The position numbers were made by a program, and so were the translations under genes. Shown here one piece after another: positions 11,534-56,375 of a stretch of DNA of 64,000 nucleotides. Under the pieces are notes generated by a model, which worked only from the letters and a program-made list of their open reading frames with translations, had not been told where the DNA came from and ran no database searches. Each line of letters starts with the position of its first letter. Position 1 is the first letter of the stretch. Origin of the DNA: a virus; IMG/VR virus record IMGVR_UViG_3300038393_000351, positions 1 through 64,000 of that record, one strand, 5' to 3'.

Positions 11534-11903
11534 TGATATCTACCTCACTGATCGCAATCATATTATCTGCGAACTCATAAGCCTGAAGCGAGATCTGTTG
11601 TTCCAGTGTATAATCTGGATTCAGAGATTTCATATTCGGGATCATAGCAATAAGAGACTGAAGTGCGTGGGCTGCGAAGTAGTCGCGTCTTGATATACCA
11701 TTAACACCGTCGTTCACTGACATCTCCTCTACGATGCGTTTAACCGCTTTAACTGCGGTGCTTAGATTCTTACGTGCGTCTTTAGTGACTTGCTCTTCGG
11801 ACGGACCATCGTCTGATTCCCTACGTGAATCAAGAGCGTCTACAACCGGCCCAGAGATCTGAACGCGCTCAATCGGAAGTTCAAGATCTTTAGTAATCGG
11901 CAT
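11526..11903 (-). CDS. hypothetical protein
   Basis: GISRRDYFAAHALQ...AYEFADNMI. Confidence 0.7.
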   Translation of the reverse strand: MPITKDLELPIERVQISGPVVDALDSRRESDDGPSEEQVTKDARKNLSTAVKAVKRIVEEMSVNDGVNGISRRDYFAAHALQSLIAMIPNMKSLNPDYTLEQQISLQAYEFADNMIAISEVDING

Positions 11904-13296
11904 CTCTTACTCTCTCCCTGATCTTTGCTAGAGAATCATCGACGACGAGTTCACCATTCAGATAAACGATCCTAAGCTGGTTGCTTCGGTCGATGATGTC
12001 GTAGCCGATGGCACTCGTCGTTGTGAATTCTCCAGTGTTGGTGTCTTTATACACAGCGAACCGACCCTTCTTCGATCGCTTATCCGGCTGATCGACTGGA
12101 TTCTTAAAGACGTCGAGCCACTTACCATTCCTATAGATCGCCGAGCACTTCATGGCGAACTTATAAGTGTCGCGGTTGACCATCTGAAGAAGACCGCTGC
12201 CCATTCCAAATGCCAGGTTATCAAGAGACCATCCGGCTTTCTTCAAGTTTTCACAGATGATGGGAATCGTATCGACTGTGATTCCATCGCCCTGAATGAC
12301 ACGGATATACGATGGAAGTACTTTATAACCCTTCTCATTCACCGTGTAACCATATAACTCGCCGAGTCTCTCCACGACGCGAACAGGTACAGTGAGGGGA
12401 TCACCGGAATCCGGACGAGCAATGAATACTCCACCCTTCTCCTTCAACTTATCGATGTACGCTCCTAGAACGTTCTCGATAAAATCCCATGTCGAGTACG
12501 AATCGATCGGGCAAGCAAAGAGATCGAAGAGATCGATCATCTTCCCGAAGTACTCCTTCTCGCCTCCCTGCTGATACGACGTCACACAAGAGTGCTCTCC
12601 AGCTGGGATCGAGAATCCAGCCATCGGCTCATTGTAGTACTTCTTGGCGAATAGAACAGCCTTCATCGTGTCCGTTCCTAAGAACGAGCAGAGATGTCCC
12701 ATGCCACCGATGCCGGCCGACTCCTGAGATGAAGCACCGCGGAATCCAAAATCATGAAGCTTGAAGCTGATTCCATCGAGGTTGTCGCACGTCTCCTCCA
12801 TGTATTTCCGGATGATCTGGCGACAGCGGTAGGAGTTCGTGGCGATCGTTGTCGGATACCAGACTTGAAGAAGGATCGTCTCAAAGAACGATACGACTCC
12901 AGCACACCTGGAATCAGTGTTGACGATTGTCATGAGTACATTTTTGTTCTTAACAACCGTGCCCTCAGGCAGCGCTCGAATCTCGATAGGTAGCCTTCCA
13001 TCAAGTCGATTAACGATGTAGTCCCACATCTTCCTGTCGAACGGCTCGCCGTGCTCGTTCCAGACTCTCTCAGCTTCATCGACTTGTGCTTTGATGATCG
13101 GTCGGCTGAAGTATCGCTTGAGGATGTACTGAAGCCCAAAGAAGAGCGTTCGGTCGTACTCGCCTCCTCGACTCTCGATATAAGAGTAAACGAAGTCCGT
13201 TCCCTCAGGATACGTCTGAGACTGAGACGCTTTATAGCTGTCCACGCACAGAAGCGGATTCTTATCACCGAGTCTCTCTTTCTCATTCTTCTTCAT
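11890..13296 (-). CDS. nadV: nicotinamide phosphoribosyltransferase (NAMPT)
   Basis: DSYK, LHDFGFRG, SIPAGEHS, RPDSGDP, VIQGDG, FGMGSGLLQ, FAMKCS. Confidence 0.95.
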   Translation of the reverse strand: MKKNEKERLGDKNPLLCVDSYKASQSQTYPEGTDFVYSYIESRGGEYDRTLFFGLQYILKRYFSRPIIKAQVDEAERVWNEHGEPFDRKMWDYIVNRLDGRLPIEIRALPEGTVVKNKNVLMTIVNTDSRCAGVVSFFETILLQVWYPTTIATNSYRCRQIIRKYMEETCDNLDGISFKLHDFGFRGASSQESAGIGGMGHLCSFLGTDTMKAVLFAKKYYNEPMAGFSIPAGEHSCVTSYQQGGEKEYFGKMIDLFDLFACPIDSYSTWDFIENVLGAYIDKLKEKGGVFIARPDSGDPLTVPVRVVERLGELYGYTVNEKGYKVLPSYIRVIQGDGITVDTIPIICENLKKAGWSLDNLAFGMGSGLLQMVNRDTYKFAMKCSAIYRNGKWLDVFKNPVDQPDKRSKKGRFAVYKDTNTGEFTTTSAIGYDIIDRSNQLRIVYLNGELVVDDSLAKIRERVRDADY

Positions 13297-22106: not shown

Positions 22107-22179
22107 CGAGCTTGCATGGGAATCGAACCCATGTCTCTGACTTCCACGCCAGCGTCAAGTCCACTCTACTAACAAGCTC
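22107..22179 (-). ncRNA. tRNA-like RNA with 6-nt anticodon loop, no CCA
   Basis: GAGCTTG/CAAGCTC; CTGGC-GTGGAA-GTCAG; CATGGG-TTCGATT-CCCATG. Confidence 0.6.
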
Positions 22180-22266: not shown

Positions 22267-23436
22267 CTACGTAATTATATGAGGTACTACTCTCGATTTA
22301 TCGATGATGATCGGCGTGTCGTCTTCTCTGATGATTAGTCCAGTGGGTTCGTCTCCGACTACCCACGATCCGATCACAGCGTACTGATCATCGAACTTCG
22401 GGAGTTGAAACGCCTTCTGAATGATTGACCCACCCTGATTATAATCACCCTTCGTCTCATGTAAAACTTTTCCTCCCTCGAACCACTGAATGTTGGCACC
22501 TTCGCGGGAGTACATGGGTTTCTTAACCCATTGATCCTTCATCTTGTTGTAGTCCATCACTCCGTTGTCGAACGACGCTTCGAGAAGATTCTCGTGGTTC
22601 GGGAACATCTCCCAGAGAATGGGAAGGATTCCCTTGTTCGATAAGATCATCTTCCACGCGGGCTCAAGGATTCCCATGTCTACATTGGGAATGTGCTTAC
22701 CGAACTCCTCTCGACAGAGCCACTCCCATGGATAGAGCTTGAACCACCAGAGAATTGGGTTCTCCTCAACGTCGGTGAAGCACTCACCGTTCCATCCGAT
22801 GTTCCCCATGTCGATGAACTCGGAGAAGATGTGTGCCTGATCACAAGTGTCGCGAAGGTACTCAGTAGTTGCGTACTCCTCGAGCGACTCAGAGCTTGCA
22901 CCGAAGTAGAGGCACTCATCACCGATGAAGAGTTTCAGAGAATTCCATCTAGCAACCAGAGCATCGTGAATGGAATTGAACTGATCGGCTTTCGGAAACT
23001 TATCCTCCATCCAGTACCACTGGACAACGGCTGACTCGATCAGGGTAGTCGGTGTGTCGGCGTTGTACTCCAGAAGCTTGGGAGGATTGACTCCATCGTA
23101 AGCGAGATCCATGCGTCCGTAGATCGATGGGTGATTCTCATAGATCGATCGGTGAATCACGTCGTGAAACTCTTCTGGAATCCCGAGTTGATTCATCATG
23201 AAATTGGAAGAACCAACTCTCTTCACGGCTTCCAGGCACATCTGGTGCAGGTCAGACGTCGCTTTCTTCAAGCGCTCGTAGTCGTCGTTGCTGAACTCAT
23301 AGTACGCACCCTCATACCAGTTCGTACCAAAGTTCGTCACGTTGTCCGGACGGACTCCGTTGGAGTGAAAAGTAAAACCCTGCCCCTCCACGATCTTTTG
23401 CCAGTTCGGACGCGGATCTGTAGTACAACGCTTCAT
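22267..23436 (-). CDS. glutathionylspermidine synthase-like ATP-grasp ligase (YgiC-like)
   Basis: YGRMDLAY, KLLEYNADTPT, FKLYPWE, SNKGIL, SREGAN. Confidence 0.9.
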   Translation of the reverse strand: MKRCTTDPRPNWQKIVEGQGFTFHSNGVRPDNVTNFGTNWYEGAYYEFSNDDYERLKKATSDLHQMCLEAVKRVGSSNFMMNQLGIPEEFHDVIHRSIYENHPSIYGRMDLAYDGVNPPKLLEYNADTPTTLIESAVVQWYWMEDKFPKADQFNSIHDALVARWNSLKLFIGDECLYFGASSESLEEYATTEYLRDTCDQAHIFSEFIDMGNIGWNGECFTDVEENPILWWFKLYPWEWLCREEFGKHIPNVDMGILEPAWKMILSNKGILPILWEMFPNHENLLEASFDNGVMDYNKMKDQWVKKPMYSREGANIQWFEGGKVLHETKGDYNQGGSIIQKAFQLPKFDDQYAVIGSWVVGDEPTGLIIREDDTPIIIDKSRVVPHIIT

Positions 23437-50329: not shown

Positions 50330-50563
50330 TCAATTTAAATAACGACCAAACGTTTCCTCAGCTACGCATCCGATGACCATGTCCTCTTCTCGATCATCGG
50401 CAATGATGAATACTGGAGTACATCCGGCTTCCCTCCATTCATCGGCGATCTTCAGGAGTCTCGCGAATGAGTTCCTCCCGCTCAATCCAGAAGTCGCGGC
50501 CATGCTCCTGATGCGTTCCTCTGGAATAACGTCAAAATCATCTAGCGTGCGGGGCATTCTCAA
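50330..50563 (-). CDS. hypothetical protein
   Basis: AAGGAGG RBS. Confidence 0.65.
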   Translation of the reverse strand: MRMPRTLDDFDVIPEERIRSMAATSGLSGRNSFARLLKIADEWREAGCTPVFIIADDREEDMVIGCVAEETFGRYLN

Positions 50564-50840
50564 CCTCCTTTACAGCGCGGTTCGAATAGCGCTTGATTGA
50601 GTTCAGGGAAGCACCGCACGTGGCTCTAGCTTTGTACAAGCGATTGAGATAATCAGCGGTCTGTGAATCCGTCAGAGTCTCAGTGTTCGGCTTCTCGGGA
50701 AGCGGGCATTTATAGAGATTGACGGGAGGAGCTACTACAACCGTTCGCGTTGGAGATTCTTGGTTTGTAGTCTGACAGTTGGCAAGCGGAAGTGCCAAGA
50801 ATACAAGTGCCGCTGCGGTTATAATACGCTTCATCATCAC
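50538..50840 (-). CDS. o-spanin (Rz1-like lipoprotein)
   Basis: Lipobox LANC; Pro-rich segment; follows the i-spanin. Confidence 0.8.
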   Translation of the reverse strand: MMMKRIITAAALVFLALPLANCQTTNQESPTRTVVVAPPVNLYKCPLPEKPNTETLTDSQTADYLNRLYKARATCGASLNSIKRYSNRAVKEVENAPHAR

Positions 50841-51226
50841 TTAGCTCCTAGTTTCTCAATGGTCTTCTTAAGAATAAGCGAAGAGGGTCGATCGTGCTTT
50901 AGAACATCCGGCGACTGCAGCCATTCGTTGATCGAGTGTTCCTGATCGCTGAGAACTGATATATCATCATCGAGCTCCTTAGAAGCCGCTTGCTGAAGCT
51001 TCATGAGTGCTTTCTGGTGAGCGATAGTCTCATCCTGCTCTTCTATAACGCGCTGCTTGGCAGCTACTTCAGCAGTGAGTCGAGCGTTCTCAGCTGCGGT
51101 GTGTGTGACGGACCAATACATCCAGCCGACTGTGCCTACAATCGCTACAGCACCGATTCCAATAAGCCAATATTTAATAGCAGAACTAGCGAAAAACGCC
51201 GTTATTCGAGCTAACAATCCAGACAT
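50837..51226 (-). CDS. i-spanin (Rz-like)
   Basis: N-terminal TM plus coiled coil; GATAAATA at 51255-51262; GGAGGAG RBS. Confidence 0.8.
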   Translation of the reverse strand: MSGLLARITAFFASSAIKYWLIGIGAVAIVGTVGWMYWSVTHTAAENARLTAEVAAKQRVIEEQDETIAHQKALMKLQQAASKELDDDISVLSDQEHSINEWLQSPDVLKHDRPSSLILKKTIEKLGAK

Positions 51227-51874: not shown

Positions 51875-52858
51875 TTAATCTCCAATTACTTGTTGACGAT
51901 AGAGTTCCACGATCAGTTCCTCGATCTTACTCACGTCCGCTCTCTCAGGGAGCGAAGATTGAGTGCTCGCTTCTTCAACATCCGTTAATAATTTATCAAG
52001 TTCATCGGCTATCGCTTTATACGGAACTTCACCGCGCTTGATACTCAAGAGACGATCGGCGTTTGGTCTGGGAAATGTGATTTGATTCGTGCTGAGAAGC
52101 TCGATCGCCTGCTCACCTACGCGGATGGCGTGCGACAGGGCTTTCCAGTCGATTCCCTGATTCGTCTCAGCTTGCTTTGCTCGATCACCGTATTCATTGT
52201 AGACTCGTCGGTAGATTTTACAAGCGTTCTCGATCGTGATGGTGTAGGGTACTTTCCTATCGCAGCAGACGAAGTGAAGCATGTGTGTGCCGTGTGCACC
52301 GTTTGGAATGCTCTCGATCGAGCAGTGCTCTACGCTATCGGCTAAATTCTGGAGCACACCGTAGAGTTCTCCAAGCTTTTCCTTTGGAGAGATATTCTCA
52401 TAGTATTCAAGAACTTCAAGCACTTCCCTGACAGCCGCGACACGGGAACCACGGATTCCATACTTATTCGCCTGCTGTCTGCAGTATCCTACATAACCAT
52501 CAACTTTCCTCGATAGGAAGATGTTCTTGTTATCTAGAATGATGTCGTAGAGAGGGTCCTTGAAGATGATGTTCTGAGGAGGAGCGTAGATCATCTCCAT
52601 CCCAATGATGTCGCCGGAGAACAACATCTCACAGAGCTTATGGACTGAGAAGCTCTGGATGTCTACATCGTCCGCGGTGTTCTTTGCACCGTGCTCCTTG
52701 GGTTTTGAGTTGTCGTACGCTTTCTTGGCACGCTGCAGAACGATGTCTCGACCCGAGGGAAGGTGAACTTCCTTCAGATCGAGATCAGACGTTTCAGTGT
52801 TCGTTCCGTAGAGGTGCGAGCCGTGCTTAATCTTAAAGATAGTCTTCTTGTCACGCAT
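51875..52858 (-). CDS. Pol-beta-superfamily nucleotidyltransferase (RlaP-like phage family)
   Basis: HGSHLYGTNTETSDLDLK; DWKALSHAIR; LLSIKRG. Confidence 0.88.
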   Translation of the reverse strand: MRDKKTIFKIKHGSHLYGTNTETSDLDLKEVHLPSGRDIVLQRAKKAYDNSKPKEHGAKNTADDVDIQSFSVHKLCEMLFSGDIIGMEMIYAPPQNIIFKDPLYDIILDNKNIFLSRKVDGYVGYCRQQANKYGIRGSRVAAVREVLEVLEYYENISPKEKLGELYGVLQNLADSVEHCSIESIPNGAHGTHMLHFVCCDRKVPYTITIENACKIYRRVYNEYGDRAKQAETNQGIDWKALSHAIRVGEQAIELLSTNQITFPRPNADRLLSIKRGEVPYKAIADELDKLLTDVEEASTQSSLPERADVSKIEELIVELYRQQVIGD

Positions 52859-53576
52859 TGTTCTGAAGTAGATCCCGTAGTGTAAGCTTATTCGAGACTT
52901 CTACAACAAGCCCATGATGATTGATGAAGTGAGTGGGCTTGTTGTCGACGTCGTTGAAGACAGCACCAGTCAGGACACCACCGAACACACAAGCGGTGTC
53001 GAGATTGAGACGATTGTGATGAAGATCCGGCCAATCGCTCCTTAGCGGTGTGTGACCGTGAACGACGAATCCACCGTTTGGACGCATATCCATCATGAAC
53101 TCATCGCGAGCCCAGACCATGTAGTCCTTGTTCTGGGTATCCATCGAGAGACGAAGGCTCCGTTGGATGCCGGCGTGGACAAACGTCCTGAGTCCATCGT
53201 TGAAGAAGTACGGAAGATTCATCATCTCCTCGATGTAGGAACGAGGGATGTCGTAGATCTCCTGAACTCCGAACGAGTCCATCGTATCACCATACGACGC
53301 CGTCCACTGGTACTGAGAGTGAGTATCACCGAAGTACGCTTCCCAGAGCATCTTCTCATGGTTACCCATCAGGCGAATGGTCTCTCCCTTCTCCTTCATA
53401 CGACGAGAGAAGTCGAGCACTCCCTTTGAGTCCGGACCGCGGTCGATGTAGTCGCCGATGAAGACGTAGCGAGTCTCCTCACCCGGAAAGTTCTTTTCAT
53501 AGGCTGCTATGAGCGCCTTGAGTTGATCAAGGCACCCATGAACGTCGCCGATTGCAAGTGTTTTCATTTTACTCAC
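52851..53576 (-). CDS. Ser/Thr phosphatase-type metallophosphoesterase
   Basis: IGDVHG, GDYIDRG, GNHE, VHAG, HGHTP, LDT. Confidence 0.92.
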   Translation of the reverse strand: MSKMKTLAIGDVHGCLDQLKALIAAYEKNFPGEETRYVFIGDYIDRGPDSKGVLDFSRRMKEKGETIRLMGNHEKMLWEAYFGDTHSQYQWTASYGDTMDSFGVQEIYDIPRSYIEEMMNLPYFFNDGLRTFVHAGIQRSLRLSMDTQNKDYMVWARDEFMMDMRPNGGFVVHGHTPLRSDWPDLHHNRLNLDTACVFGGVLTGAVFNDVDNKPTHFINHHGLVVEVSNKLTLRDLLQNNA

Positions 53577-53724
53577 TCAAGATCGCCACGATGTCCTTGG
53601 AGATCGAATCGAATACTGCGTTAGCTTCTTCCTGCGACAGATTCTTGTCGTCGATTAAGCCGTGCTTTGCAAGAGCTGTTACAACGCTAACAACGATTAA
53701 AACTGCGATCACTTCGGTGTTCAT
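53569..53724 (-). CDS. small hydrophobic protein
   Basis: AAGGA RBS; MNTEVIAVLIVV...; ATGA overlap. Confidence 0.5.
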   Translation of the reverse strand: MNTEVIAVLIVVSVVTALAKHGLIDDKNLSQEEANAVFDSISKDIVAILSE

Positions 53725-54740
53725 GATGCTAATTCCTTGTTTCCTTGATAAAGACGAACTCGACCTTCCGCTTCTGCTTTGATGAAGCGGGCTACGTAGT
53801 CGTCGTTGTACATAGCCAGAACTTGGTAGTAGTGTTCCCAGGCATACTCCCTCCACCATCCGGAGGTGATCGAAGTGCATACCTTCTCCAGAGCGATCAG
53901 GAACGAAGTCCTCGGTGCGATCTCGAAGTTGCACGGAATCTGGCTGCGCTCCAGAGCGAGAACGTAGGACTCTTCGAGAACTGAGAGGAGCTTGACGTGA
54001 ATCGGAAGTTCAAAGAACTTCTTCTTATCGGTTTTAACTTCTGCGCCGTCGGCTTGAAAATACTTGTACGCCGGAGAAGTTTTTTGCATATCTTCGTCCA
54101 TGCAAAACGGCCAATCCGGATCTGGAAGCGTGGCTAAAGCCGCGTGTATGTCGTCGTGCTCATACTTGTACTCGACTCCATCACCTGAGAAGAACTGCTC
54201 CTTGTTCCGTTCAAGAGACGGGTGCTTATAATAGTACGTTGCCTTCTCACGTCTCTTGAACCAGTCCTGAAGCACTGGGGGTACGCTGTAACCAAGTCCC
54301 CTCAGAGCCAGGATGTCGTCCATCGTCTTCCTGAAGTGTGGATTGTTCTTCAGATAGCGGTGAGACAACTTCAGTGCTAGAACAACGTTCGGATCAGCAA
54401 AGTGAACGACGCCGAACAGATCATCTAGAAACTTTTTGTTAAACTCTGTAAATAGCGCTCGGTCTGTTCTTTTCAGTTCCCATCCAGTTGGATTCTCGAT
54501 CGGATCGGCAACCTCAAACTCGATCGGCCTGGCACCTCTCACGTGAAGATGAATGATGATCTTTAGCAACCGAGAATCATCGGTGTGAAACTCGATTTTC
54601 TTTTCCCTAAGGCGATCTTGAAAACCATTGATTTCATCCATCGTAGCGATGGCGTCTACATCCGAGGGAATCCTCCCCAGGCGAACGCCGTGAGCGATGA
54701 GTGCATGAGAACCGATGATGAGCATGTCAGCAACCCGCAT
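53721..54740 (-). CDS. putative nucleotidyltransferase (GS...DxD) with a helical C-terminal domain
   Basis: LIIGSHAL...PSDVD; LKLSHRY, YEHDDIH, LEESYVLALER, TSGWWR. Confidence 0.75.
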   Translation of the reverse strand: MRVADMLIIGSHALIAHGVRLGRIPSDVDAIATMDEINGFQDRLREKKIEFHTDDSRLLKIIIHLHVRGARPIEFEVADPIENPTGWELKRTDRALFTEFNKKFLDDLFGVVHFADPNVVLALKLSHRYLKNNPHFRKTMDDILALRGLGYSVPPVLQDWFKRREKATYYYKHPSLERNKEQFFSGDGVEYKYEHDDIHAALATLPDPDWPFCMDEDMQKTSPAYKYFQADGAEVKTDKKKFFELPIHVKLLSVLEESYVLALERSQIPCNFEIAPRTSFLIALEKVCTSITSGWWREYAWEHYYQVLAMYNDDYVARFIKAEAEGRVRLYQGNKELAS

Positions 54741-55020
54741 CCGATGATAGCCAACCTTCTAAGGCACCATGCCCTTCGAGAGGCCAATAGTCGTTCCGTA
54801 CATCAGAACTATACCATGGTGTTCCATCCGATTGAACCGGAAAATAATACCCAGAGTTTCCAAATTCATCAAAGGGAGGAAGTCCAGTAAACGAAACGAT
54901 GATGCCGTGTTCATCGGCGATCTTTTCGATCTCCCAGATCTTCCTCTTAACGTAGTCGCGAAGCTCAACTCGGATTCCCTCGATCTTCGCCTGAGCTTCA
55001 GCTTTCGGATCATTAGTCAT
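54727..55020 (-). CDS. W-x-SS-C paralog 5
   Basis: EKIADEHG...SGYYFP...GWLSSDAGC*. Confidence 0.8.
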   Translation of the reverse strand: MTNDPKAEAQAKIEGIRVELRDYVKRKIWEIEKIADEHGIIVSFTGLPPFDEFGNSGYYFPVQSDGTPWYSSDVRNDYWPLEGHGALEGWLSSDAGC

Positions 55021-55201
55021 CTTGATACTTCTCCAGGATCAAGGTGAATTTCTCACCATTGATTTCGAAATTGCGATAGCTAACGTGTTCACCGTGTTTT
55101 GAAGCTTGAAAGAATCGCCTATCTTCATATCGATCCATGACGTCTTCTATCCCATTATCGATAGAAGACGTTAGTTCATCTAGAATACTCACGCTCAACA
55201 C
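55013..55201 (-). CDS. hypothetical protein inserted in the array
   Basis: Overlaps both neighbours; unrelated sequence. Confidence 0.55.
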   Translation of the reverse strand: MLSVSILDELTSSIDNGIEDVMDRYEDRRFFQASKHGEHVSYRNFEINGEKFTLILEKYQDD

Positions 55202-55524
55202 CTTTCGGACGAACTGATCCAGTTACCGTGACTCCAGTCACGTTCGTATTCTCCGCAGTTGTTCCATGGATGATATTCATGGTGTTCCGGATGATTTTTG
55301 TTTGGATCTTCTTCGTAACCTTCCGGAAGATCATATGCATAATCATCCCAGACTACCCAATCATCTGGACGCTTCGGGTAATAAGTTCCAGAATGCTGGT
55401 TGTCTGGGCTGGAGTAGACAAAAGGCACTATATGATCGTCGGCGATCTTTTGTGCTTCTTTCCATTTTTCTTTGATCGAATCGATGATATCATCGATTCG
55501 ATTGCGCGCTTGTTGTTGATTCAT
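55195..55524 (-). CDS. W-x-SS-C paralog 4
   Basis: AQKIADDH...SGTYYP...NWISSSERC*. Confidence 0.8.
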   Translation of the reverse strand: MNQQQARNRIDDIIDSIKEKWKEAQKIADDHIVPFVYSSPDNQHSGTYYPKRPDDWVVWDDYAYDLPEGYEEDPNKNHPEHHEYHPWNNCGEYERDWSHGNWISSSERC

Positions 55525-55526
55525 CT

Positions 55527-55775
55527 TCAGCAATAGATCGAAGATGAAGACCAGGACGAAGGATACCACTCACCTTCACCTGAAGCACCACCGTCTGCGT
55601 ACGGATGATTTTCCGAACCGGCCGGGTAGTAAGTACCGATGTTGCGAGGCTCGAAATCGAACTCTTCACCAGTCTCATCGGCGATCCTCTGAGCCGCGTC
55701 GATCAGTTCCTGAATCTGACCACGAATCTCAGCGAACTTCTTTCGCGCGTATTCCTTCTTACTCATACCGTCCAT
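55527..55775 (-). CDS. W-x-SS-C paralog 3
   Basis: AQRIADETG...IGTYYP...WSSSSIYC*; GGAGG RBS. Confidence 0.8.
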   Translation of the reverse strand: MDGMSKKEYARKKFAEIRGQIQELIDAAQRIADETGEEFDFEPRNIGTYYPAGSENHPYADGGASGEGEWYPSSWSSSSIYC

Positions 55776-55786
55776 TTCTTCCTCCA

Positions 55787-56047
55787 TCAGCAAGTCGACG
55801 CTTGCCAGTCAATGTGTTCATGAGACCAATGAGCGTCTGCCCATTCATCTGACGCTTCCCATTCGCACCCGCCCGACGCTTGCCAGATCAGCTCACGAGG
55901 GTGATACGTGCCCAGCGTACTCGGCTTGAAATCAAACGAGATTTCATGCTCGTCGGCGATCTCAGTCGCCTTATCGAGAAGATCGTTGACTTCAGCCAGG
56001 ATCTTCTTGATATCTTTCTTCGCTTTTTCCTTCTTACTCAGCGTCAT
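55787..56047 (-). CDS. W-x-SS-C paralog 2
   Basis: ATEIADEHE...LGTYHP...WQASGGC...WEAS...WQASTC*; AAGGAG RBS. Confidence 0.8.
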   Translation of the reverse strand: MTLSKKEKAKKDIKKILAEVNDLLDKATEIADEHEISFDFKPSTLGTYHPRELIWQASGGCEWEASDEWADAHWSHEHIDWQASTC

Positions 56048-56058
56048 TCAGTTCTCCT

Positions 56059-56316
56059 TTAACAGTTCTGCGACGATGAACGCCAGAAACCACCATCGTC
56101 TCCATACTCATTCGATGGAAACAAGTAATCGTCGGGATCACCTTCCCACTCGCTTTTTCTTGCAGGATCGGGATAATACGATCCGCCCATGCCATACGCA
56201 ACACTGAAGAAGAACTCGATACCGTGAGCATCGGCGATCTCAGTAGCTTCCTTGATGAGGAGCTTTGCTTGATTCTTCAGTTCCTGAATCTTTCCTCTCG
56301 CTTCGTTCTTATCCAT
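56059..56316 (-). CDS. W-x-SS-C paralog 1
   Basis: ATEIADAHG...GGSYYP...FWRSSSQNC*; GAGGA RBS. Confidence 0.8.
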   Translation of the reverse strand: MDKNEARGKIQELKNQAKLLIKEATEIADAHGIEFFFSVAYGMGGSYYPDPARKSEWEGDPDDYLFPSNEYGDDGGFWRSSSQNC

Positions 56317-56345
56317 CCGTTCCTCTTCCATATAAAGACAGTGGG

Positions 56346-56375
56346 ATTATACGTCCTAAATACTCATTCGTGAAC
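56346..56375 (-). promoter_or_regulatory. early/sigma70-like promoter (G)TTCACG-N17-TATAAT
   Basis: Heads the paralog array operon. Confidence 0.6.

Follow-up and report, generated by a model that had tools for sequence, protein, structure and literature searches.

Pol-beta-fold enzymes that nucleotidylate a partner protein include MntA-HepT (MNT-HEPN), GlnE and DrrA, and the acceptors in these cases are Tyr residues of folded partners, not a C-terminal Ser-rich tail; none of the three is known to come with an array of paralogues. Further points of reference are the bacterial resistance enzymes ANT(2'')-Ia and LnuA, which are single-lobe proteins with no partner protein and place a nucleoside monophosphate (NMP) onto a hydroxyl of a substrate that is not a nucleic acid, and the MenAT and AbiEi-AbiEii (DUF1814) systems, whose niche is bacterial chromosomes and plasmids. 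MenT1 is described as using the catalytic set T39, D41, D43, K137 and D152 (PMC10435456), as having the ability to transfer phosphate to the hydroxyl of a Thr within its own active site (PMC11375011), and as being controlled by a short protein encoded upstream, the N-terminal helix of which acts on the active site (PMC10435456; PMC11375011). Here, we report on a stretch of viral DNA (IMG/VR record IMGVR_UViG_3300038393_000351, positions 1 to 64,000; all 64,000 nucleotides of it are called the window below) that encodes, on its minus strand between 51875 and 56375, five small proteins with a Cys-terminated, Ser-rich tail, followed by a Pol-beta-type nucleotidyltransferase. These small proteins and this enzyme constitute a conserved two-part module of lytic-type phage genomes. 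The module resembles MenAT most, but it differs from MenAT in sequence family, in genomic niche and, as read by motif register, probably in the phosphoacceptor, and the small proteins and the enzyme probably work as an undescribed pair.

The genes are read from 56316 toward 51875 in the order P1, P2, P3, P4, a 62-amino-acid (aa) open reading frame (ORF), P5, the 339-aa GS..DxD protein (hereafter, the enzyme), and then a downstream trio made up of a 51-aa hydrophobic ORF, a 241-aa metallophosphatase and a 327-aa second GS..DxD protein. Start and stop codons of adjacent genes in this run overlap or abut, which bears out the tight coupling of the array with both GS..DxD genes, the hydrophobic ORF and the phosphatase that was proposed by an earlier reading of the letters without database searches (the original prediction). 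The same reading had described five tandem ORFs of 82-109 aa, each ending in a terminal Cys, and all five are found on the minus strand with exactly those C-termini, that is, P1 (56059..56316; 85 aa; WRSSSQNC), P2 (55787..56047; 86 aa; WQASTC), P3 (55527..55775; 82 aa; WSSSSIYC), P4 (55195..55524; 109 aa; WISSSERC) and P5 (54727..55020; 97 aa; WLSSDAGC). These coordinates follow starts chosen with a ribosome-binding site; an alternative upstream ATG at 56331 would make P1 90 aa long. The common helical N-terminus, the IAD(E/D/A) and G-x-Y-x-P motifs and the W-x-S-S...Cys end are likewise seen in all five paralogues, and the columns invariant across P1-P5 are I-A-D, G-x-Y-x-P, one Gly, the tail Trp and the terminal Cys. 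The kinship of the five is not due to chance, since a profile made of 87 family members from outside the window (the five window rows and an 85%-identical protein, P0001, having been removed) recovers exactly P1-P5 among the 775 six-frame ORFs of at least 40 aa in the window (E values of 3.3e-29, 4.5e-20, 1.2e-20, 1.5e-18 and 5.7e-16, respectively). No further ORF of the window matches this profile at E <= 10 apart from the 62-aa ORF, a non-member at E 0.58. Four of the five also match phrog_899, a family of unknown function (P1, E 2.1e-20; P2, 3.1e-10; P3, 1.1e-11; P4, 2.9e-9), and P5 has no PHROG match.

A word-indexed protein search with P1 returned only one relative, 85% identical, and a profile search against 1.84 billion cluster representatives returned 263 clusters (50% identity) at E <= 1e-3. 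The family is widespread, small, acidic (median isoelectric point, pI, of 4.4 and net charge of -8) and practically phage-only. The original prediction had staked itself on conservation of the terminal W-x-S-S...C, and this conservation is high: 142 of the 150 best family matches end in Cys, and the consensus of the last nine positions is G-W-x-S-S-S-x-x-C, with Trp(-8) in 130, Ser(-5) in 136, Ser(-4) in 130 and Cys in 142 of 149 proteins (the best 150 minus one spurious 757-aa match). Ahead of the conserved Tyr, 82 members carry YGMGG. The constant element of the family is the tail rather than the body, and the most conserved part is the C-terminal tail, not the leader. The tail motif also recurs inside the variable region, where W-x-[SAP]-S is found in 49 copies in 43 of 127 proteins against 3.0 +/- 1.7 in shuffled sequences (maximum of 10 in 500 shuffles); two copies are in P2 (W-x-A-S at residues 55 and 63) and one each in P3 and P5 (WYSS in the latter). 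Such internal recurrence fits a short recognition or modification motif.

The tail is found on other bodies as well. In 7 of the 18 loci with an enzyme homologue that were negative with the profile, a tail-bearing gene with a different body lies upstream of the enzyme; one such locus (L029) has five upstream genes ending in FW(V/I)PSSM(E/S)C with a body unlike that of the profile family. In Brevibacillus phage Sundance, the acidic protein gp088 (L121:3675-3956) is encoded immediately 5' of an enzyme homologue of full length and terminates in two copies of E-Y-S-S-S-Y-Y with no terminal Cys. This end may be a Gram-positive variant of the tail, and it suggests that the run of Ser residues is a more general feature than the Cys. 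A search with the family alignment for longer proteins revealed no fused form among 8000 candidates, which is weak evidence. Separately, the BFVD entry A0A142IFN2 (276 aa; Pseudomonas phage vB_PsyM_KIL5) matches the entire 85-aa model of P1 described below with a TM score of 0.67 by query, and may represent a fusion, several units in one protein, or a gene called too long.

The linkage of the two parts was assessed in 80 IMG/VR loci with an enzyme homologue, a set that was not dereplicated. A profile-detectable family member lies within 6 kb of the enzyme, always on the same strand, in 62 of these loci, and the number rises to 69 when members recognized by profile or tail pattern are counted. 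Members typically precede the enzyme (162 upstream vs. 9 downstream), number one to six copies per locus, and are separated from the enzyme ORF by a median gap of 37 nt. Across the 80 loci, 154 of 4794 same-strand ORFs match the tail pattern, compared to 4 of 6099 opposite-strand ORFs. When loci were instead collected by way of a YGMGG-type small protein, 21 of the 23 obtained encode the enzyme about 1.2 kb or less downstream; one of the two exceptions is a contig that stops about 100 bases past the small genes, and the other (L099) is considered further below. Co-occurrence of the small proteins with the family encoded at 53721-54740, which the original prediction had proposed to check, is seen in both directions. 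All-vs-all clustering of the same-strand ORFs places the small family at 57 of the 80 loci and the next clusters at 11 or fewer, the two largest of which are other reading frames within the enzyme gene; that is, clustering of same-strand ORFs in the 80 loci shows no third conserved component near the enzyme.

Individual phage genomes show the same association. T4 is without both families, and Mosigvirus p000v and Otagovirus PN09 carry both, adjacent to each other; in Phapecoctavirus ESCO13, three tail-bearing genes lie upstream of the enzyme. The linkage spans Straboviridae, Otagovirus, Phapecoctavirus, jumbo-sized contigs, and Xanthomonas, Ralstonia and Myxococcus phages, and carriers of the enzyme include relatives of RB69, phAPEC8-type coliphages, and Acinetobacter, Klebsiella and Pseudomonas syringae phages. 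In appearance, the module looks like early-transcribed genes. In the literature searched, we found no paper on DUF7275, DUF7277, phrog_899, phrog_2141 or a MenT-like phage enzyme, and a search linking a C-terminal cysteine with a phage nucleotidyltransferase and anti-defense returned no matching paper. The idea of an undescribed phage system stands for the small proteins and the first nucleotidyltransferase, while it does not extend to the phosphatase and the second nucleotidyltransferase.

The enzyme gene is annotated at 53721..54740 (minus strand), with the true start likely being the ATG at 54725, one base past the P5 stop codon. Its product matches DUF7275 (207.9 bits) and DUF7277 (41.9 bits; cut-offs of 27) in Pfam and phrog_2141 in PHROG (E 4e-97). 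The GS/DxD site is intact, with G10, S11, D27 and D29 invariant in 54 homologues; many His, Asp, Glu, Arg and Tyr residues of the C-terminal part are invariant too, and an insertion of about 75 residues carries invariant His, Asp and Tyr motifs of its own. The AlphaFold2 model (predicted local distance difference test, pLDDT, of 87.5) shows the bi-lobed Pol-beta nucleotidyltransferase fold of the MenT/AbiEii toxins, a sheet lobe plus a helical bundle. MenT1 (8an4) is the closest fold, with a Z of 11.0 and a root-mean-square deviation of 3.8 over 162 of 195 residues aligned (model range 1-304), and Foldseek agrees with this match (E 1.1e-4). Next come MenT3/TglT (6j7n; Z 9.7), H. pylori 4ok0 (9.2), TM1012 (9.1) and ANT(2'') (9.1), followed by AbiEi (8.5), LnuA (8.5) and MenT4 (6y56; 8.4), after which the values drop to 6.8 and 4.6, the latter being where unrelated rows begin. 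The ANT(2'')-Ia and LnuA matches cover the N-terminal 150-170 residues, and the phage enzyme is twice as long as these proteins. MntA-HepT, GlnE and DrrA are not among the fold matches listed.

By motif register, the invariant D27, D29 and K124 and the near-invariant D142, at similar spacing, are candidate equivalents of the MenT-type catalytic residues, and, by the same register only, a Pro two residues before D27 (consensus R-x-P-x-D-x-D) occupies the position of the MenT1 phosphoacceptor T39. The module is like MenAT in that the gene just ahead of the enzyme specifies a short protein with an N-terminal helix. It is unlike MenAT in that there is no sequence relation between the enzymes, the phage enzyme being DUF7277 plus DUF7275 with the insertion and the Pro mentioned above, and in that the phage partner belongs to another family, has the invariant Cys-terminated tail, and is present in one to six copies. 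Specifically, a Pfam scan of the enzyme at E <= 0.1 gave only DUF7275, DUF7277 and a sub-threshold DUF4768 match, with no DUF1814; a sequence search against PDB gave no match; a profile of the 54 homologues found no MenT chain at E <= 10; and PADLOC matched none of five proteins. Homologues are found in 701 deposited phage records, all at <60% identity, and at 9 loci among 185,579 prokaryotic species (one genome each), all on contigs of metagenome-assembled genomes (MAGs). The median pI of the enzyme is 6.1, a value that does not help to tell RNA from protein as the substrate. In two actinophage loci, one of Streptomyces phage Blueeyedbeauty (region L122:4597-5295) and one of Gordonia phage Bachita (region L123:4711-5001), the enzyme homologues are N-terminally shortened (ORFs of 254 and 284 aa), and one or two small proteins with the common motif G-Y-[YR]-[DS]-S-[WY] are encoded downstream, not upstream, of them.

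The small protein is predicted to be compact. AlphaFold2 on P1 with a 93-row alignment gave a pLDDT of 89.7 and a predicted template modeling score of 0.76, with a helix at residues 3-31, a hairpin at 35-48 and a third strand at 77-80 that contains the tail Trp. The helix of about 30 residues packs on the three-stranded sheet, and no segment falls below a pLDDT of 50; the last five residues are less confident (block mean of 68). Foldseek found no PDB match to this model at E <= 0.001 (best E 3.3), and the best Z of VIA-align against 48,161 chains was only 3.4. Matches in BFVD are uncharacterized relatives from the family itself, e.g., RB69ORF139c, and those in the protein atlas are unnamed clusters with scores of 0.79 or lower.

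To assess how the array evolves, we measured rates against a 94%-identical relative (L008). The enzyme, the phosphatase and the second nucleotidyltransferase (of the RlaP family, see below) share 94%, 93% and 91% protein identity with their L008 counterparts, with nonsynonymous rates (dN) of 0.038-0.051, compared to 70-84% identity and dN of 0.106-0.224 for P2-P5. On this measure, the small genes change at 2-6 times the rate of the enzymes. The changes in P2-P5 fall mostly in the N-terminal helix, and the acidic C-terminal half of each paralogue is well kept. The relative is also one array unit short: the alignment jumps from 56231 to 55962 of the window (L008:4678-4956), and the first array gene of L008 is a P1-like start fused to a P2 body, which indicates that arrays change by recombination between units (unit deletion). 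The faster evolution of the small genes, the array change by unit deletion and the recurrence of the tail motif inside the proteins are new from this window. The 62-aa ORF within the array (55013..55201, minus strand) lacks a Cys tail, overlaps P4 and P5 at its ends and is translationally coupled to both; its only homologue is in L008 (51% identity), and, since it is kept there at a ratio of nonsynonymous to synonymous rates (dN/dS) of 0.23, it is probably a real, fast-evolving gene.

Based on these results, our preferred reading, to which we assign a probability of roughly 0.35, is that the enzyme uses a Ser hydroxyl of the tail as the acceptor for an NMP or a phosphate. Under this hypothesis, the enzyme would recognize the C-terminal Ser-rich tail of the small proteins, with the terminal Cys and the free carboxylate as the recognition handle, and would move a nucleotide (or phosphate) from a nucleoside triphosphate onto the tail serine hydroxyl. 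In that case, each phage would deploy its one to six diversified bodies as modified effectors or decoys, each for a different host target, and the phosphatase and RlaP would be separate RNA-end-repair genes that are merely co-transcribed in this lineage. One enzyme gene is accompanied by one to six diversified copies, a ratio that is easier to reconcile with substrates or decoys than with a 1:1 inhibitor. The fold clade to which the enzyme belongs (MenT, ANT(2''), LnuA) transfers NMPs to hydroxyl groups of RNA or antibiotics, and the proposed module would share with MntA-HepT, GlnE and DrrA the arrangement of a minimal nucleotidyltransferase beside a small protein whose hydroxyls get modified. 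A more far-reaching version, which we consider speculative and unlikely, is that of a new protein-tagging system, in which the MenT-fold enzyme would nucleotidylate the tail Ser of a diversified set of small carriers, possibly building a short protein-primed chain, and the conjugates would act early in infection, e.g., as mimics of tRNA or nucleic-acid ends that trap host defense or translation factors.

Several observations weigh against tail modification or against the linkage behind it. The 80 loci include near-duplicates (e.g., L022/L023/L026, L031/L034 and L047/L048), and thus the counts overstate the number of independent events. In 11 of the 80 loci, no tail-bearing gene lies within 6 kb of the enzyme (two of these are without upstream sequence), and L099 has full flanks and the small protein but no enzyme within 6 kb. 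Proteins are not the substrates of the nearest structural relatives of the enzyme, which use tRNA 3' ends or small molecules instead. Ser is set apart from Cys or Tyr as the likely acceptor by conservation alone. Further, dN/dS of P2-P5 is 0.06-0.29, below 1, and hence there is no positive-selection signature of an arms race. A complex prediction of the enzyme with P1, given as alignments, scored 0.00 in two runs with no controls and counts neither way.

In the main alternative, which we rate slightly below the preferred reading, the small proteins would be regulators or adaptors in the manner of MenA1 and MenT1. The enzyme would in this case act on RNA, likeliest on tRNA 3' ends, either to poison host translation or for repair of phage or host tRNAs, and the small proteins would bind it through their N-terminal helix and tail and hold it inactive or steer it to different RNAs, with one paralogue for each target. 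Such a role would agree with the nearest folds being the tRNA-extending toxins MenT1, MenT3 and MenT4, with the control of MenT1 by a short upstream-encoded protein described at the outset, with a gene order as in MenAT (small gene, then enzyme, overlapping or abutting), and with the presence of 14 tRNA genes on the phage (ARAGORN) and of two RNA-end enzymes in the same transcription unit. However, one to six diversified copies per enzyme are unlike a stoichiometric antitoxin, the Pro at the position of T39 (motif register) and the placement of the enzyme outside DUF1814 by sequence set it apart from MenT1, and the invariant Cys at the extreme C-terminus is left unexplained by regulation. In addition, the near-absence of the enzyme from cellular genomes (the 9 MAG-contig loci mentioned above) indicates that the module does not behave as a toxin-antitoxin addiction module. 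It is also conceivable, although we regard this as quite unlikely, that the two parts are simply co-inherited, with the small proteins being stand-alone early host-takeover or anti-defense proteins (acidic nucleic-acid mimics, or decoys for a host factor that recognizes the tail) and the enzyme merely part of the same early accessory cassette. The strong acidity of the small proteins, their evolution being faster than that of the neighboring enzymes, the change of the array by unit deletion, the location among accessory genes of T4-like phages and the sigma70-like early promoter candidate upstream are all compatible with such co-inheritance. What argues against it is that the linkage is kept across very different phage groups, with the enzyme as the sole conserved neighbor, usually tens of bases away, and that the two parts are jointly present or absent in the three genomes tested (T4, p000v and PN09).

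The original prediction had also grouped the whole 4.5-kb operon into one writer/eraser system, in which both nucleotidyltransferases write and the phosphatase erases. The genes are indeed translationally coupled behind one promoter-like site, here and in L008, and a phosphatase homologue is also found near the enzyme in L055 (directly downstream), and in L053 and L058 (within ~3 kb), as well as, by annotation, ~3 kb upstream in ESCO13. Nonetheless, only 4 of the 80 enzyme loci have a phosphatase homologue nearby, which is too rare for linkage, and only 2 have an RlaP homologue; RlaP is present in 1575 phage records, including one of T4, which is without the module; RlaP enzymes target RNA 3' ends (PMC12776372); and the best named relatives of the phosphatase are the Pnkp phosphatase domain and ApaH/PrpE. 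We therefore consider the single-operon system improbable and do not retain it. The comparison of the array with ribosomally synthesized and post-translationally modified peptide (RiPP) precursors, in which a constant leader would guide a maturase and a variable core would be released as a peptide, e.g., with a lanthionine- or AviCys-like ring formed from S-x-x-C, fares worse still and appears very improbable. RiPP arrays do resemble the module in having several tandem, diversified small paralogues with constant and variable segments beside an enzyme, and the S(-4)-x-x-C(-1) spacing with its free C-terminus is reminiscent of the ring found at the C-terminal end of some lanthipeptides. Yet the confidently compact predicted fold, with the tail Trp as part of a core strand, is a poor fit to a RiPP-type peptide, the constant part includes the extreme C-terminus, and orthologues keep the supposedly variable C-terminal half better than the helix. 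Moreover, the conserved neighbors include no family of dehydratases, cyclases, radical-SAM enzymes, YcaO proteins, proteases or exporters, and the small-protein family is confined to lytic-type phage genomes.

A fast-evolving protein that is present in several copies, bears an invariant Ser-rich Cys tail strictly at its C-terminus and is tied to one enzyme provides a directly testable hypothesis. Should the enzyme turn out to modify the tail, a toxin-type nucleotidyltransferase fold would be making a protein modification that is new; should the small proteins instead steer an RNA-directed enzyme, it would be the first use of the MenT fold in phage offense or repair. Under either reading, a function would be assigned to several accessory-region genes in each genome of phages of a widely used, therapeutic type.

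Immediately downstream of the enzyme, the 51-aa hydrophobic ORF (53569..53724, minus strand) is lineage-local, with a homologue in 1 of the 80 loci (the near relative L008) and a weak holin_LLH match under the cut-off (E 0.0025). The metallophosphoesterase that follows (52851..53576, minus strand) is of the lambda-phosphatase/Pnkp-phosphatase/ApaH type, based on matches to PF00149 (64.6 bits; cut-off of 21.5) and phrog_246 (E 1.6e-44), and its translation shows GDxHG, GDxxDRG and GNHE motifs. Its best PDB match by sequence is 4j6o (E 2e-14; row titled 'Metallophosphoesterase'), which we take to be the Pnkp phosphatase domain of C. thermocellum. It also matches the phosphatase part of TIGR04075 bacter_Pnkp with an E of 1.5e-21, under the whole-protein cut-off, followed by PrpE/ApaH and then protein Ser/Thr phosphatases. 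The gene in ESCO13 (L124:240-983) is annotated as a serine/threonine phosphatase and lies upstream of the three tail-bearing genes as well as of the enzyme.

The last gene of the run (51875..52858, minus strand) is an RlaP-family nucleotidyltransferase by PF10127 (41.3 bits vs. a cut-off of 23) and phrog_388 (E 2.2e-82), with G-S and D-L-D within the first 30 residues and no PDB match by sequence. Its homologues in T4-like phages are annotated as nrdC.11 (Aeromonas phage 31) or nucleotidyltransferase. RlaP enzymes add one or two NMPs onto damaged RNA 3' ends (PMC12776372) and are read as RNA-repair enzymes in jumbo phages (PMC7824862). In our reading, the phosphatase and RlaP lie outside the module and are separate RNA-end-repair or general phosphatase genes, co-transcribed with it here. 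As for known RNA-repair systems, PF10127 and PF00149 genes are present in the record but a complete pathway is not shown: RNA ligases of the RtcB and PF09414 families were not found in the 117-kb parent record, which is ~67% complete, and a search for PF09511 ligases was silent in control genomes too and thus uninformative.

The parent IMG/VR record is 117,391 bases long. Among its T4-type replication genes are those for a DNA polymerase of family B, a clamp loader, a UvsX-like recombinase, a DnaB-like helicase and a ribonucleotide reductase. Deposited phages gave no megablast match to the 4.6-kb region. Regarding transcription, the original prediction had placed the array behind one sigma70-like promoter. 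The best of six sigma70-like sites between 51000 and 57300 does lie directly 5' of P1 (TTCACG-17 nt-TATAAT at 56346..56374, minus strand; 10 of 12 consensus matches), but such sites are no more common than expected from shuffled sequences (6 observed vs. 7.6 expected), and the site is a candidate by consensus match only. Elsewhere on the minus strand of the window, a spanin-like pair is visible by eye at 50538-51226, with a 129-aa ORF that has an N-terminal hydrophobic segment followed by a 100-aa ORF with a lipoprotein-type signal that ends in L-A-N-C. The minus strand also encodes a nicotinamide phosphoribosyltransferase at 11890-13296 (phrog_448, E 8e-153) and a glutathionylspermidine synthase homologue at 22267-23436 (phrog_6215, E 1.5e-116). 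Finally, one of the 14 tRNA genes, at 22107-22179 (minus strand), is a tRNA-like gene for which ARAGORN reports an undetermined two-base anticodon (gg).

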